A stretch of DNA of 47,428 nucleotides from Candidatus Heimdallarchaeota archaeon. Lineage in GTDB: Archaea > Asgardarchaeota > Heimdallarchaeia > Heimdallarchaeales > Heimdallarchaeaceae. A program made the position numbers and the translations under genes. The DNA is taken from the NCBI GenBank assembly GCA_021399395.1, contig JAAFKJ010000005.1, positions 1 through 47,428 on the forward strand, given 5' to 3'. A model generated the notes under the pieces. That model did not search any database. It had not been told where the DNA came from and worked only from the letters and a program-made list of their open reading frames with translations. Below, in pieces: positions 37,977 to 42,119 of the stretch. Positions within the stretch are counted from its first letter, which is position 1. Every line of letters starts with the position of its first letter.

Positions 37977-38345
37977 TTAGGTATCATTACAATGGTCTAT
38001 ACGCATGTTATCCTTATGATTCACACCTAGTTCTTCAAGAACTTGGATATAACCAGATTCTAAGAAGAAGTCTTTAAGTTTGAACCACGATGTTGAAACT
38101 AAAACTTGAACATTATGAGAAACTAATGTGGGACAGATATGATTTGGTTTATTGAATTCTTCTGGTAATCCTATTCTTCCACATATCAAACAATATTTCC
38201 ATCTTGCAGATCTCTTGTACAAGCTGTTAAAAGTGAAATGATATAATTGAGACCCGTTTTTGAAACTCAATTTTGAAAGAACACCACTAAAACACTTAGC
38301 TAATATCTTTATGTCGTTTTTTTCCTTATAGGATATATCTGGCAT
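37977..38345 (-). CDS. unrecognised CxxC-HxC protein family, paralog 3
   Basis: MPDI...ARWKYCLICG...HIC...TSWFKLKDFFL. Confidence 0.85.
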   Translation of the reverse strand: MPDISYKEKNDIKILAKCFSGVLSKLSFKNGSQLYHFTFNSLYKRSARWKYCLICGRIGLPEEFNKPNHICPTLVSHNVQVLVSTSWFKLKDFFLESGYIQVLEELGVNHKDNMRIDHCNDT

Positions 38346-38444: not shown

Positions 38445-38915
38445 TTAAGCTGTGCTATCTTGCTTAACTCCTTCAGATAAGCGCTCTGCTTTACTTTTAA
38501 CAGGAATTTTCTCAACAATAGGCTGTTGATAAGGAATATCCTTTACGCCTGCTTTTTCAAGAGCTTTGGCATACTTTTCTGTCATAAAAAATGCTTTCAA
38601 TTTATACCAGGAAGTAGTAATAAGTACTGGAAAGTGATTAACACCCATTGTGCATTTGTGAACTCTATCATGAGCTTTCTTTCTGTTAGAAGTACCCATT
38701 TTCTTTAATTCATGTTCATCCAACATATCTTCAGTGGATTCAATTTCGCCACATTTCAAACAGTACTTCCATCTTGCTGATCGGATATACAATGATTCAT
38801 ATGTATCAGAATAAATAAGCAATCCCTCGTTAAATGGAGAAACTATAAGTTTCATGGCGTATTTTTTTGCAAGGGAACGAATGAATTGTTGTTCTGCATT
38901 TGATATTTTTGGCAT
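38445..38915 (-). CDS. unrecognised CxxC-HxC protein family, paralog 4
   Basis: MPKI...ARWKYCLKCG...HKC...TSWYKLKAFFM; GGTGA SD before ATG 38915. Confidence 0.85.
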   Translation of the reverse strand: MPKISNAEQQFIRSLAKKYAMKLIVSPFNEGLLIYSDTYESLYIRSARWKYCLKCGEIESTEDMLDEHELKKMGTSNRKKAHDRVHKCTMGVNHFPVLITTSWYKLKAFFMTEKYAKALEKAGVKDIPYQQPIVEKIPVKSKAERLSEGVKQDSTA

Positions 38916-38987
38916 AAGTTTCACCAGTTATGTGTATATGAAGCATAACATATTAAATATATTTGCTTTTGTATTTAACAAAATAAA

Positions 38988-39135
38988 GTCACAGTGAAAT
39001 CATGGGTACATATTGATTCTGTAAAACTTATATTGGCACAATTGCAGTGTGTGTAGGAAGGTCATATATCTAGATGGAGAAGAGATTTACAAAGCAGGTA
39101 AATGGTTGATACCTAGAATAAAAGAAAAAACTTGA
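38988..39135 (+). pseudogene. possible frameshifted remnant of an M29 aminopeptidase C-terminus
   Basis: VTVKSWVHIDSVK then, after a frame change, IYLDGEEIYKAGKWLI; resembles the HxD...IxxDGxxIxxxGxxxI ending of M29 peptidases. Confidence 0.3.
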
Positions 39136-39160
39136 TTCGAAGAGTATTTACTCTTTTTTC

Positions 39161-39199
39161 AAAAAAAAAAAAAAAAGATGAAAGGACTAAGTCTCATCG
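39161..39199 (-). terminator. hairpin plus long oligo-T terminator after the 47 aa membrane micro-protein
   Basis: Minus strand GATGAGAC-TTA-GTC-CTT-TCATC followed by a run of about 16 T. Confidence 0.65.
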
Positions 39200-39206
39200 T
39201 CATTTT

Positions 39207-39350
39207 TTAATTAGATAACATCGAAAGAGAAAGAACCCCTGCAATAATTATGACAGACAGAGATACTATGTAAACTACTAATCTCCAAGTAATTGAAAGG
39301 GTTTTTTCAATTCTAAAACGTCTAATAAATTTTCTTTCATTTCCAATCAT
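39207..39350 (-). CDS. 47 aa single-TM micro-protein (below ORF-track cutoff)
   Basis: MIGNERKFIRRFRIEKTLSITWRLVVYIVSLSVIIIAGVLSLSMLSN; GAGGTG SD; terminator downstream. Confidence 0.75.
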   Translation of the reverse strand: MIGNERKFIRRFRIEKTLSITWRLVVYIVSLSVIIIAGVLSLSMLSN

Positions 39351-39404
39351 ATTTTACACCTCATTTCGAAAAATGTTTAAGTCTCATTTAAGATCAATCA
39401 GGAG

Positions 39405-39565
39405 TATCATCGTGGAGAAGAGGAAAGGATCAGGAAACAGTTAGCGACACACAAGCTCTGGGTTGGTTAGAGTTTGTTGTTTCCTGATCCTCAGCAGATG
39501 GTGAGCTCTGCAGGTTTGTCTGTTCAGCAAGATACAAACAGCGTGAGTTCTTGGATGTGATGATA
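39405..39565 (+). ncRNA. candidate ~160 nt structured RNA
   Basis: Closing stem TATCATC/GATGATA; perfect 14-bp stem 39426-39439/39478-39491 with an inner stem; two further hairpins; mismatches are G-U on the + strand. Confidence 0.55.
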
Positions 39566-39614
39566 ATCGTAAAATAATAAATGAGAGGAAAAGTGAGGAT
39601 TCACTTCTCGTCAC

Positions 39615-39761
39615 TTATATAACTATTCTACTGAATGCAGGAGCTAAACCAACTACGATACCGACTGCGAACAATGGTAATGCATATCTTAACGTTCTCC
39701 AAAGATAGATGATTGGTCGAGACACTTGGATCTTAGATAGGAATTTTGGCAGACTTAACAC
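39615..39761 (-). CDS. 48 aa hydrophobic micro-protein (below cutoff)
   Basis: (GTG)LSLPKFLSKIQVSRPIIYLWRTLRYALPLFAVGIVVGLAPAFSRIVI; GGAGGTG SD; hairpin downstream. Confidence 0.7.
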   Translation of the reverse strand: MLSLPKFLSKIQVSRPIIYLWRTLRYALPLFAVGIVVGLAPAFSRIVI

Positions 39762-39809
39762 ACTTTACACCTCCGTTTCATTTTTAGTAAGGGGGATTGA
39801 AGACCCAGC

Positions 39810-39959
39810 TTATCCTGCGAGAGGAATTCGCTGAGTTAGCAATCTTTCAGAGCGTGCTTTTGCTCTAAGGGTGCGTCGAGCTCTTTTTAACTCGCTTAAC
39901 TCCTTTTGGAGGTCCCTGATCTCTTGGTCCAGTAATCTGGAAAGTTCATGTTCGTTCAT
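39810..39959 (-). CDS. 49 aa coiled-coil/basic micro-protein, copy A
   Basis: MNEHELSRLLDQEIRDLQKELSELKRARRTLRAKARSERLLTQRIPLAG; GGTGA SD; paralog at 41013-41159. Confidence 0.85.
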   Translation of the reverse strand: MNEHELSRLLDQEIRDLQKELSELKRARRTLRAKARSERLLTQRIPLAG

Positions 39960-39985
39960 TTTTTTCACCGTTTGAGTTTTTCTTA

Positions 39986-40055
39986 TGTCTGAACAAATCC
40001 GACATCCTATATAAAGGCATTTTTAGAAGTCAGAATTGTCGGTTTTACTCCGACA
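39986..40055. promoter_or_regulatory. two TGTC-N11-GACA palindromes (39986-40004, 40037-40055) flanking the TATA of micro-operon A
   Basis: ATGTCTGAACAAATCCGACAT and TTGTCGGTTTTACTCCGACAT; TATATAAA at about 40008-40016. Confidence 0.75.
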
Positions 40056-40139
40056 TGTAAAAAGTGTGAAAAATGAGTGAAACACACGCGTTAGTGCAAA
40101 ATATTGCACATACGAGAAGAATTATAATGAGTAAAAGAA

Positions 40140-40156
40140 TAGGCAAGTTTTGCCTA
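40140..40156. promoter_or_regulatory. GGCAA-N3-TTGCC palindrome
   Basis: TAGGCAAGTTTTGCCTA. Confidence 0.65.
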
Positions 40157-40240
40157 AGATGTCGGATTGTAACTACAATCTTGATCCAAAAATCATTTAA
40201 AAAATGGGAAGTTTCATGAAAAAATAGGGAGAAAAAGAGA

Positions 40241-40669
40241 TTATTTTTCTGTTACCAAAGCATCGGTTACTTGTATTTCTTTAACTGAGGTAGGTACTTC
40301 TTCAGTTGTTTCACTAGGCACAGTAACAATCTCGCGTATGTCTGAGTCTACACCAATAGCTTCTAGTGCTTTTGCATACCGTTGTGTCAAAAAGAAGTCT
40401 TCTAATTCCTTCCAGCTTGTTGTTACTAATACTTGAAAGCTTTTGAAATCAAGAGCACAAGAATGGTTTTCCTTCTTTAATTTTGTTGCAGCGTCTATTT
40501 CGCCACATTTTAAACATAGCCGAATTCGAGAGGATCCGTCATATAATTCATTAATAGTATTTTGATAAAGTGATAAACCTGAATCAAACGGAGCATTGCG
40601 TAAATCAAGTGCAAAATGCTTCGCTCTGTAGCGTATCCTTTGTTTTTTAGCGGCGGTCATGTCTGTCAT
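40241..40669 (-). CDS. unrecognised CxxC-HxC protein family, paralog 5
   Basis: MTDM...SRIRLCLKCG...HSC...TSWKELEDFFL. Confidence 0.85.
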   Translation of the reverse strand: MTDMTAAKKQRIRYRAKHFALDLRNAPFDSGLSLYQNTINELYDGSSRIRLCLKCGEIDAATKLKKENHSCALDFKSFQVLVTTSWKELEDFFLTQRYAKALEAIGVDSDIREIVTVPSETTEEVPTSVKEIQVTDALVTEK

Positions 40670-40818: not shown

Positions 40819-40971
40819 CTAAAGAAAGAAACTTGATAAAGCAGTTAAGGCAATCAACCCTAACACCATTAACAAACTAAAAAGAAATGCATATCCCATA
40901 ACAATCAACGCTTTCTCTTTCATATTTTCGATTTTCATTTGTCTTCTTACATTTACTACTTTGTTTGCCAT
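40819..40971 (-). CDS. 50 aa single-TM micro-protein (below cutoff)
   Basis: MANKVVNVRRQMKIENMKEKALIVMGYAFLFSLLMVLGLIALTALSSFFL; GGAGGTG SD; T-rich tract after the stop. Confidence 0.75.
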   Translation of the reverse strand: MANKVVNVRRQMKIENMKEKALIVMGYAFLFSLLMVLGLIALTALSSFFL

Positions 40972-41012
40972 ATTAGACACCTCCACGTGTATGACGTTTT
41001 ACTAGAACCAGG

Positions 41013-41159
41013 TTATCCCTGGGAGGGGATTTGCCCGATTGAGTACCTAGAAAGAGCTTTTGCTCTTCCGGTGCGACGAGCTCTTTTGAGCTGATTCAAC
41101 TCCTTTTGGAGTGCTTTTATTTTCTTGTTCAACAGGTTATTTAATTCGTGTTCATTCAA
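41013..41159 (-). CDS. 48 aa coiled-coil/basic micro-protein, copy B
   Basis: (TTG)NEHELNNLLNKKIKALQKELNQLKRARRTGRAKALSRYSIGQIPSQG; AGGTGA SD; overlaps the upstream stop. Confidence 0.85.
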   Translation of the reverse strand: MNEHELNNLLNKKIKALQKELNQLKRARRTGRAKALSRYSIGQIPSQG

Positions 41160-41355
41160 TTCTATCACCTTTGTTTTTGCAATACTTTCTTAAGTCAAGT
41201 TTCGAAAACCTGATAGTGGTATCCATGCGATAATCGTAATGTGGTCGATCATTTCGTCCAGGATACTTAGATGCTAGAGTTTTTGTGAGCCGATTGAGAT
41301 CTTCATAAAGCCTCTTTAGCTCGCGGTCCAACAGTTTTTGTATTTCCATCGTCAT
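41152..41355 (-). CDS. 67 aa small protein with N-terminal coiled coil similar to micro-proteins A/B
   Basis: EIQKLLDRELKRLYEDLNRL versus ELSRLLDQEIRDLQKELSEL; AGGTGG SD. Confidence 0.7.
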   Translation of the reverse strand: MTMEIQKLLDRELKRLYEDLNRLTKTLASKYPGRNDRPHYDYRMDTTIRFSKLDLRKYCKNKGDRIE

Positions 41356-41557: not shown

Positions 41558-41630
41558 CACATATGTCATCAAATACATGCAAATATAAACCTTTAGGCAA
41601 CAGATGTCTGAAAGCATAGATATAAATATA

Positions 41631-41649
41631 TGTAATCAAATAGATTACA
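41631..41649. promoter_or_regulatory. TGT-N13-ACA palindrome just downstream of the TATA of paralog 6
   Basis: TATAAATA then TGTAATC-AAATA-GATTACA. Confidence 0.75.
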
Positions 41650-41672
41650 CAAGAAAAAAAGGAGTGTATAAT

Positions 41673-42119
41673 ATGCCTGATGTAAAAGATGCAGAAAAAA
41701 CACAAATCAAGTATATAGCTAAAAGATATGTTCAAGATTTAGCTAACGCTCCAATGAGTGAGGGACTTACTATCTATAGTAAAACAATAGATAAAATTTT
41801 TCTACGATCTGCAAGATGGAAAATATGTCTTCAATGTGGAATCATCAATAAAAGAGAAATTCTCAGTGAGAGTAATCATAGTTGTTCATCCACGTTAGGT
41901 AATTTACCTGTGATTATTCAGACAAGTTGGGTAAAATTGAAAGAGTTTTTCCTTACTGATGAATATATCAAATTACTTGATTCAGCTGGAATAGAGCCCA
42001 TTTCTGTCCGACCTACTCCCGTCATTACCACTGTTGAGGAATCAGCAGAAGTTCCCGCTGCAGTTCCAGAAAAAGCTTCTGTAAAAGCTGGTCGAGAAGG
42101 TTCTGATTCAGAGAGTTAG
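41673..42119 (+). CDS. unrecognised CxxC-HxC protein family, paralog 6
   Basis: MPDV...ARWKICLQCG...HSC...TSWVKLKEFFL; AGGAGTG SD before ATG 41673. Confidence 0.85.
   Translation: MPDVKDAEKTQIKYIAKRYVQDLANAPMSEGLTIYSKTIDKIFLRSARWKICLQCGIINKREILSESNHSCSSTLGNLPVIIQTSWVKLKEFFLTDEYIKLLDSAGIEPISVRPTPVITTVEESAEVPAAVPEKASVKAGREGSDSES

Follow-up and report, generated by a model that had tools for sequence, protein, structure and literature searches.

What is the GC-enriched, strongly folding stretch of DNA that separates two genes for very small hydrophobic proteins in a Candidatus Heimdallarchaeota archaeon, and on which strand does it act? The stretch occupies positions 39405-39565 (161 nucleotides, nt) of the 47,428-nt piece of contig JAAFKJ010000005.1 (assembly GCA_021399395.1) that was analysed here and that we refer to as the window. 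An original prediction had described it as a structured RNA candidate lying between two hydrophobic micro-open reading frames (micro-ORFs) on the opposite strand, and had interpreted it as an antitoxin-like small RNA (sRNA) of the plus strand or, alternatively, as a structured 5' leader of a 47-amino-acid (aa) peptide. Its location is as described, with a 47-aa and a 48-aa micro-ORF flanking the element on the minus strand. We report that the element is an undescribed, genus-restricted structured RNA family tied to the micro-protein gene, and on balance we favour, with moderate confidence, the second of these readings, in which it is a structured, cis-acting 5' leader of the messenger RNA (mRNA) for a 46-51-aa membrane micro-protein, transcribed from the window minus strand (hereafter the gene sense).

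The observed structure is real and lies beyond chance. All of the stems that had been named are present in the sequence (Table 1), and the GC enrichment is likewise confirmed, at 0.41 for the element versus about 0.30-0.35 in its surroundings. RNAfold predictions for positions 39405-39565 gave -55.7 kcal/mol (z-score -3.17) on the plus strand and -47.6 kcal/mol (z-score -5.30) on the minus strand, and none of 200 shuffles equalled the native fold on either strand.

The element is not confined to the window. In total we found 22 copies in 18 of the 25 genomes of one Candidatus Heimdallarchaeota genus, sharing a conserved folded segment of about 125-190 bases and falling into five sequence types (A, five copies; B, seven; C, four; D, one; E, five). 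A BLAST search of the region in 60 relatives returned full-length homologues in three congeneric genomes, with partial homologues in others, and the most conserved 21-mer of the family, searched with up to two mismatches in 83 genomes of the class, occurred 16 times in 12 of the 25 genomes of the genus; elsewhere in the class it gave two 2-mismatch matches only, and the reversed control pattern gave none. Neither these two matches, both in genus g14, nor one in G073 was accompanied by the remaining parts of the element, and we discounted all three as chance. A spaced pattern and a covariance model recovered type D (genome G007) and type E (G023 and G008), and three more type-E copies (G005, G012 and G018) were found upstream of associated protein-family genes. 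Outside the genus, the covariance model detected no element in six other genomes of the family and pattern searches detected none in the other 58 genomes of the class. We discarded weak model matches at G004:C85, G002:C92 and G018:C10, where the surrounding sequence is unrelated and no micro-protein gene follows. A pattern scan of metagenomes yielded 58 stretches, five of them with the second conserved block, and four of these five repeat copies already counted.

Across genomes the locus is syntenic next to a DEAD-box helicase gene rather than scattered. This helicase has relatives at 69-90% identity at 12 loci, 11 labelled Candidatus Heimdallarchaeota archaeon and one labelled uncultured archaeon, while the thirteenth match is bacterial with 36% identity. 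Each relative genome holds one or two element copies. The suggestion that the element might prove to be a miniature inverted-repeat transposable element (MITE) or other multi-copy repeat, defined only by its 14-base-pair (bp) inverted repeat, is ruled out because the element is single-copy in its own genome, in which a search of 2.8 Mb (81.8% complete) returned the self-match only, with a next best match of 32 nt at E 0.155.

Position and orientation connect the element to one gene family. The proteins downstream of all five element types align as a single family of 46-51 aa, and a profile search identified 26 genes of this family, spread over 19 of the 25 genomes of the genus; a further 22 genomes of the order had none. 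Twenty of the 22 element copies are directly upstream of, and co-oriented with, such a gene, with about 35-100 nt between the end of the long hairpin P1 (described below) and the Shine-Dalgarno (SD) sequence. In a twenty-first copy (L032, type B, G013:C41) an insertion shifts the gene about 290-360 nt further off, and the remaining copy (L045, type A) is an orphan whose gene is gone. Seen from the genes, 21 of 26 have an upstream co-oriented element, the G013 gene included; the five without one are two type-C genes (G019 and G013), one type-E gene (G002) and two of a more distant paralog. This association, found for 21 of the 22 copies, together with the better fold and pairing in the gene sense described below, favours the leader that had been offered as the alternative in the original prediction.

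The gene on the other side of the element is more variable. In types A and B it encodes a 48-aa membrane micro-protein, itself preceded by a gene for a 52-aa coiled-coil protein; in type C it encodes a 112-138-aa protein in three copies, with none close by in the fourth (L029); and in type E it encodes an 85-aa protein. Moreover, a paralogous cassette elsewhere in the same genome (G000, contig C131:59-450) encodes, in order, a protein of 59 aa and a 48-aa membrane protein similar to that of the window, followed by the same terminator-like hairpin, and has neither the element nor the 47-aa gene. Because the other-side neighbour varies and the 48-aa cassette on C131 lacks the element, we assign the element to the 47-aa gene. 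The micro-protein belongs to no family in Pfam, NCBIfam, PADLOC or Atlas, and its Atlas neighbours (scores <=0.81) are unnamed. Within the window, an identical block spanning SD and start precedes three micro-ORFs (repeat family D5).

Three alleles of the micro-protein gene cleanly lack the element (L130, G019:C652; L131, G013:C41; L186, G002:C44). In L130 and L131 a T7A box is joined to the SD region, and in L186 the deletion also takes most of the upstream 85-aa gene. These leader-less alleles are natural, built-in controls. In L040 (G021:C49), a type-A element is followed by a micro-protein gene whose start region is gone. The window itself contains a second family member at 40819-40986 (minus strand; 50 aa from the ATG at 40971, gene coordinates 40822-40971), a more distant paralog without an element that lies directly after a 51-aa coiled-coil gene. 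Pfam gave its product a weak match to Synaptobrevin that falls below the cut-off (E 0.0093; 16.2 versus 26.4 bits), and SNARE-like proteins have been reported in Heimdallarchaeota.

Read in the gene sense, the element and its surroundings present a fixed order of parts: a conserved motif, the hairpins Pb and Pc, the long hairpin P1, a linker, the SD sequence and the ATG. The motif has the family consensus AYCRCGCUGAUUGUUUCUUGCUGAAAC (AUCRCGCUGAUUGUUUCUUGCUGAAAC in types B and C). Pb, predicted in the gene sense in types A, B and C, is helix 1 of the family alignment, with 82.7% of its cells paired, and Pc is the weakest helix of that alignment (56.1% paired in the gene sense, 65.3% in the plus sense). 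The basal helix of P1, P1a (GGAUCAGG/CCUGAUCC), is nearly invariant and is kept in all types. The second helix of P1 differs from type to type, being AAACA/UGUUU in type A, to which the window belongs, GAGC/GCUC plus AAGAUGAA/UUCAUCUU in type B, GACCAGACU/AGUUUGGUC in type C, CGGUUAAG/CUUAACCG in type D and a further variant in type E, and the apical region reads UGCU in types A-D. GCUGA-like words recur three to four times along the RNA (CGCUGAU, UUGCUGAA, UCUGCUAAGG and the UGCU at the apex of P1), and type D carries GCUCAAAA four times. By contrast with these shared parts, the outer closing stem of the original prediction, although present in the window, survives in only three of the five type-A copies, is missing from all other types and is probably not part of the conserved RNA.

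Retention of the P1 base while the second helix differs in each type indicates selection at the RNA level; such wholesale helix replacement between types would be hard to explain without selection on pairing. In a model-fitted alignment of 19 type A-D copies (18 distinct rows, 35 pairs), standard pairs occupy 81.3% of cells, compared to 73.8% in shuffles (none of 500 reach the native value) and 36-54% with slid partners, and the covariation score is 0.249 versus 0.144 in shuffles (again 0 of 500), although these figures overstate independence, given that the copies are closely related and were aligned with a model of the structure under test. Changes on both sides of a pair occur in 14 of the 35 pairs and in nine of the 12 pairs of helices 4 and 5.

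Between the TATA-like box and the conserved motif, types B and D also contain a local inverted repeat that types A and C lack; it reads GATCAACC-N8-GGTTGATC in type B and TTACCAA-N15-TTGGTAA in type D (for example in L035 and L141), and in L031 it has one compensatory and one wobble change. This repeat could be an extra 5' RNA hairpin or a DNA operator.

We regard the gene sense as the probable transcribed strand, judging from several features of the sequences; a look through public sequencing runs listed no RNA run that contains the locus. In ten representatives, the z-score of the core fold was more negative in the gene sense in eight and tied in two (mean about -3.5 versus -2.2); gene-sense and plus-sense values were -5.14 and -3.45 in the window, -3.59 and -0.90 in L046, and -1.91 and +0.19 in L141. 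The structure conservation index (SCI) of the type-C consensus fold was 0.70 in the gene sense and 0.46 in the plus sense. When a separate model was built for each sense, the gene sense had 81.3% of cells paired, 96.5% in P1a and a covariation score of 0.249, compared to 77.1%, 86.8% and 0.198 in the plus sense. P1a relies in types C, D and E on G-U pairs that would become A-C on the plus strand (e.g. in L046, L141, L187 and L183), and in the gene sense this helix has 15 G-U cells, five of which we judged to be type-A register artefacts, versus one A-C. Lastly, runs of A6-A8 inside P1 in types D and E become terminator-like T6-T8 runs on the plus strand, and archaeal polymerase is expected to stop at T runs.

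These strand signals are not unanimous, and a number of them count against transcription in the gene sense. The mismatches that were said to be G-U on the plus strand and A-C on the minus strand are so in the apical helix of the window copy, and in four of the five type-A copies, but the pattern is reversed or mixed across the family. P1 alone is 5-8 kcal/mol more stable on the plus strand in L033, L036, L039 and L045, with L040 the exception among type-A copies (1.2 kcal/mol more stable in the gene sense), and Pc, as noted, pairs better in the plus sense. Runs of T7-T8 follow the motif on the plus strand in two of the four type-C copies and in L039 and L031, where they resemble plus-strand terminators, and the loops, read from the sequences, are purine-rich on that strand. 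Counts of G-U in the pairs common to both consensus folds are balanced (2 to 2, 6 to 5 and 1 to 1) and leave the strand undecided.

Possible transcription signals flank the element in the gene sense. A terminator-like hairpin, conserved in relatives with altered stem letters and also found after the paralogous 48-aa gene on C131, appears from its sequence to mark the end of the preceding unit. It is followed by a TATA-like box. At the 26-27 nt spacing of archaeal promoters, this box would put the start of transcription close to 39550, some 8 nt ahead of the conserved 5' motif. Type C has a T7A box whose distance to GCUG is 33 nt; in the element-less alleles L130 and L131 the same box is separated from the ATG by 33 nt, as expected if the leader was placed between the start site of the promoter and the start codon. 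Oligo-T acts as a terminator in archaea, and a T16 run after the micro-protein gene is likely the terminator of the joint leader and micro-protein transcript. The folded leader would measure about 165-235 nt across the family, and the whole predicted transcript about 390 nt. Types B-E have no T run of at least five between P1 and the SD. Two details sit less comfortably with this layout: the window leader has a U5 run 6 nt before its SD, and in types B and D the proposed start would cut through the local inverted repeat, so that either the start site or the promoter may be misassigned there.

Table 1. Features of the element and its flanks, in window coordinates
Feature	Position	Strand	Description	Basis
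Whole element	39405-39565		161 nt	
47-aa micro-protein gene	39207-39350	-	MIGNERKFIRRFRIEKTLSITWRLVVYIVSLSVIIIAGVLSLSMLSN; basic N-terminal third, one hydrophobic helix	
48-aa hydrophobic micro-ORF	39615-39761	-	upstream of the element in the gene sense	
SD of micro-protein gene	39357-39362	-	GAGGUG, 6 nt before ATG 39348-39350	
Conserved 5' motif	39523-39547	-	CUCACGCUGUUUGUAUCUUGCUGAA in window; most conserved family sequence, invariant columns	
Hairpin Pb	39517-39540	-	UGUUUGU-A-UC UUGCU GA-ACAGACA; conserved loop UUGCU	
Hairpin Pc	39494-39511	-	GCAGA GCUCACCA UCUGC; position conserved, sequence and register variable	
Long hairpin P1	39426-39491	-	contains 14-bp stem (I12) and enclosed 9-bp stem	
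Pyrimidine-rich linker 3' of P1	39412-39425	-	UUCCUCUUCUCCAC in gene sense; CCUCU-like tracts also in types B and E	
Terminator-like hairpin	39588-39609	-	GAGAAGUGA-AUCC-UCACUUUUC plus T-rich tail, directly after stop codon of upstream 48-aa gene	
TATA-like box	39570-39581	-	TTTATTATTTTA in gene sense	
T16 run	39161-39176	-	in gene sense, 31 nt after stop codon of 47-aa gene	
Outer closing stem	39405-39411 / 39559-39565		TATCATC / GATGATA, 7 bp	sequence
Outer closing-stem arm	39405-39411	.	partner 39559-39565 lies upstream of proposed start site	
14-bp stem	39426-39439 / 39478-39491		AGGATCAGGAAACA / TGTTTCCTGATCCT; 14/14 paired, inverted repeat I12	sequence
Enclosed 9-bp stem			ACAAGCTCT / AGAGTTTGT; one G-T	sequence
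Small hairpin	39494-39511		GCAGA-TGGTGAGC-TCTGC	sequence
Further hairpin			GTTTGT / ACAAAC	sequence

What we observe is the fold, the family, the compensatory changes and the fixed position and orientation; the transcribed strand, the start site and a regulatory role we infer. In the leader that we favour, transcription would proceed from the TATA-like box, and the RNA would open with CUCACGCUG...UUGCUGAA, fold as Pb, Pc and P1, continue through the linker and SD to the ATG, and end at the T16 run. The leader would act in cis on the translation or stability of its mRNA, most likely as a docking platform for a trans-acting factor that, at a guess, is more probably a protein than a small ligand. 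Such a factor would recognise the unpaired letters that do not vary, namely the YGCUGA repeats and the UGCU of two loops, displayed on helices of variable sequence; it is this combination of conserved unpaired letters and variable helices that suggests recognition in trans.

The results on how the leader might influence expression count against this proposal. Complementarity of the leader to its own SD beat shuffles in none of 19 leaders, with no anti-Shine-Dalgarno pairing, and the predicted pairing probabilities of the SD range from 0.26 to 0.96 with partners that differ between copies. A long-range partner of the 5' motif in the SD, ORF or 3' region was found at <=0.05 in one of 19, at inconsistent positions, and a search for an expression platform, either terminator or SD-sequestering helix, returned none.

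Other explanations account for some of the same observations. An independent plus-strand sRNA of about 39405-39565 or longer would run divergently from the 47-aa gene, with a core that is antisense to nothing, and would act on micro-protein mRNAs in the manner of a type I antitoxin. Some plus-strand signals described above speak for it, namely the lower absolute energy in the window copy, G-U pairs in the type-A apical helix, better Pc pairing and T7-T8 runs right after the motif. A TTTAAK-like box about 25-30 nt before 39405, noted as TTTAAG in the original prediction, is also common to some type-A and type-B copies; L040 and L039, both close relatives, lack this box, however, and type B has it in the 3' arm of a gene-sense hairpin. 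We consider such an sRNA unlikely. The z-scores favour the opposite strand in eight of ten representatives, P1a of types C, D and E would be interrupted by A-C mismatches, the T6-T8 runs would fall within the element in types D and E, and most type-A and type-B copies lack a T run on the plus strand until well inside the next gene. Its complementarity to six neighbouring translation starts is no better than in shuffles (one of six at 0.03, which is not significant after six tests). With an unconserved box, internal T runs, mismatches in P1a and no target complementarity, the antitoxin-like sRNA as first proposed is not supported.

A related scheme makes both strands functional, in a type I toxin-antitoxin-like module comprising a membrane toxin, an inert folded 5' untranslated region (UTR) and a plus-strand cis-antisense antitoxin. 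The micro-protein is small and hydrophobic enough for such a role, at 47 aa with one hydrophobic stretch (below the approximate 60-aa limit), and the folded leader resembles in length the ~180-nt 5' UTRs of type I toxin mRNAs reported in PMC2887945. Two overlapping functional RNAs could give the mixed G-U signals, and transcription of both strands would explain why wobble signals point to both; the leader-less alleles and the one orphan element also fit. Yet the micro-protein is like no known toxin family in the databases searched, the locus is syntenic beside the helicase instead of scattered, and the five of 26 family genes without an element would be awkward if the element were needed to silence a toxin. 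Neither a pairing that sequesters the SD or locks the 5' and 3' ends together nor a conserved plus-strand promoter was detected, and type I systems, according to the same source, had as of 2010 been characterised only in Firmicutes and gamma-Proteobacteria. We give the module little credence, and the same holds for its boldest form, in which both strands are transcribed and the locus is the first RNA-controlled membrane-toxin module in Archaea, with a silent 5' UTR and a cis-antisense antitoxin: a long shot.

A gene-sense leader might also sense a ligand, an ion or temperature directly, as a riboswitch or similar device with no protein partner. Its position at the 5' end of the mRNA and its invariant unpaired letters among co-varying helices would suit this, but the hairpins stand in a row with no junction-organised pocket, no terminator or SD-sequestering platform was found, and the element is limited to one genus and one tiny gene family. 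Known riboswitch classes are broad and are tied to ligand transport or metabolism, and we think direct sensing improbable here. Least probable of all, to the point of being very hard to credit, is a purely DNA-level element in which the repeats and motif are binding sites for a regulator, for example for the neighbouring zinc-ribbon paralogs, and the RNA has no function. The local inverted repeat of types B and D does lie exactly between the TATA box and the start site, and may well be an operator, but it is outside the core studied here; the core itself, a 66-nt imperfect bulged hairpin with G-U-type changes and wholesale helix replacement, fits RNA folding and not a dyad site.

The element has no counterpart among catalogued RNAs. 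A scan of the whole window against Rfam release 15 at gathering thresholds gave no match, and at E <=10 the region 39100-40100 gave seven, all sub-threshold; the sole one inside the element is mir-30 (18.4 versus a 50.2-bit threshold). No transfer RNA or transfer-messenger RNA was found in the window. A protein-coding element was rejected: the overlapping ORFs (57, 35 and 28 aa) are not kept in other copies, and the indels of type A are not multiples of three. Three further identities were dismissed by eye. For a box C/D sRNA, the sequence GUGAUGA at 39556-39562 (plus strand) is on the 3' side, in a fully Watson-Crick stem, and missing in other types; for a bulge-helix-bulge intron, the P1 loops are not 3-nt bulges 4 bp apart; and for a CRISPR-repeat-like reading of GUUUC...GAAAC, the genome has no array-like copies.

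Among described systems, the nearest analogy is with bacterial type I toxin mRNAs and their long folded 5' UTRs. As in zorO, tisB, shoB, dinQ and hok, a tiny hydrophobic ORF with a single helix follows a folded leader, and according to PMC2887945 a 5' UTR of about 180 nt is typical, with an sRNA divergent from, or antisense to, the UTR. Unlike those mRNAs, the present element occurs in an Asgard archaeal host at a syntenic locus, some paralogs lack the leader, the protein has no sequence relation to known toxins, and no SD-locking pairing was detected. Closer in host, Methanosarcina mazei has small-protein RNAs with cognate antisense RNAs, spRNA23/asRNA93 and spRNA24/asRNA94, defined by transcriptomics (bioRxiv 10.1101/2025.10.28.685009). 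Both cases concern archaeal transcripts for very small proteins, with RNA-level control reported there and proposed here; M. mazei belongs to a different phylum, and the excerpted preprint text, with which the comparison is one of descriptions only, describes no conserved structured leader motif. Like our proposed leader, ribosomal-protein leaders and riboswitches place a conserved structured RNA between promoter and start codon, with helices that co-vary and unpaired letters that do not change; the element differs in having no Rfam match, no recognisable expression platform, and a range of one genus and one gene family. The dual-function sRNAs SgrS/SgrT, RNAIII/hld and SR1/SR1P offer a further parallel in the folded 5' part, the 47-codon ORF, the oligo-T end and the length of about 390 nt, but no trans target is predicted for the element.

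The neighbourhood holds further small paralogous genes. Four encode the zinc-ribbon paralogs mentioned above, proteins of 122-171 aa, none with a Pfam family (37977-38345, 38445-38924 and 40241-40669 on the minus strand; 41604-42119 on the plus strand); three of them share the block SLY.RSARWKYCLKCGEI...H.C...VL(V/I)TTSW, and the gene at 41604-42119 is linked by DNA repeat I1 only. Two paralogous coiled-coil proteins of 51-52 aa (39810-39968 and 41013-41168, both minus strand) have the pattern ..ELSRLLDQEIRDLQKELSELKRARR.. and end in IPLAG and IPSQG, respectively; each gene is followed by one for a membrane micro-protein, and most cassettes of the genus contain relatives. The inverted repeat I15 (AATCCGACATCCTA at 39996-40009, TAAGATGTCGGATT at 40155-40168) is situated upstream of the 52-aa gene. 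At the same place, CCGACATC is found in four of the seven relatives whose alignment reaches it, while two read GCGACATC and L023 differs; from its sequence, I15 may be a dyad operator site.

To our knowledge, structured cis-regulatory RNAs have been recognised in Archaea only rarely, and neither Rfam nor the portion of the literature reached by full-text searches yielded one described for Asgard archaea. The narrow distribution of the element, in a single genus, limits its significance. Within that genus, a variant milder than the toxin module is that the UGCU and GCUGA letters may be the RNA target of the neighbouring genus-specific C2HC zinc-ribbon paralogs, and if so, the archaea most closely related to eukaryotes would possess an RNA-protein switch specific to one lineage. 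More generally, the element opens a concrete, testable way to study how genes are controlled after transcription in the lineage closest to eukaryotes, and what its micro-protein and zinc-ribbon cassettes do.

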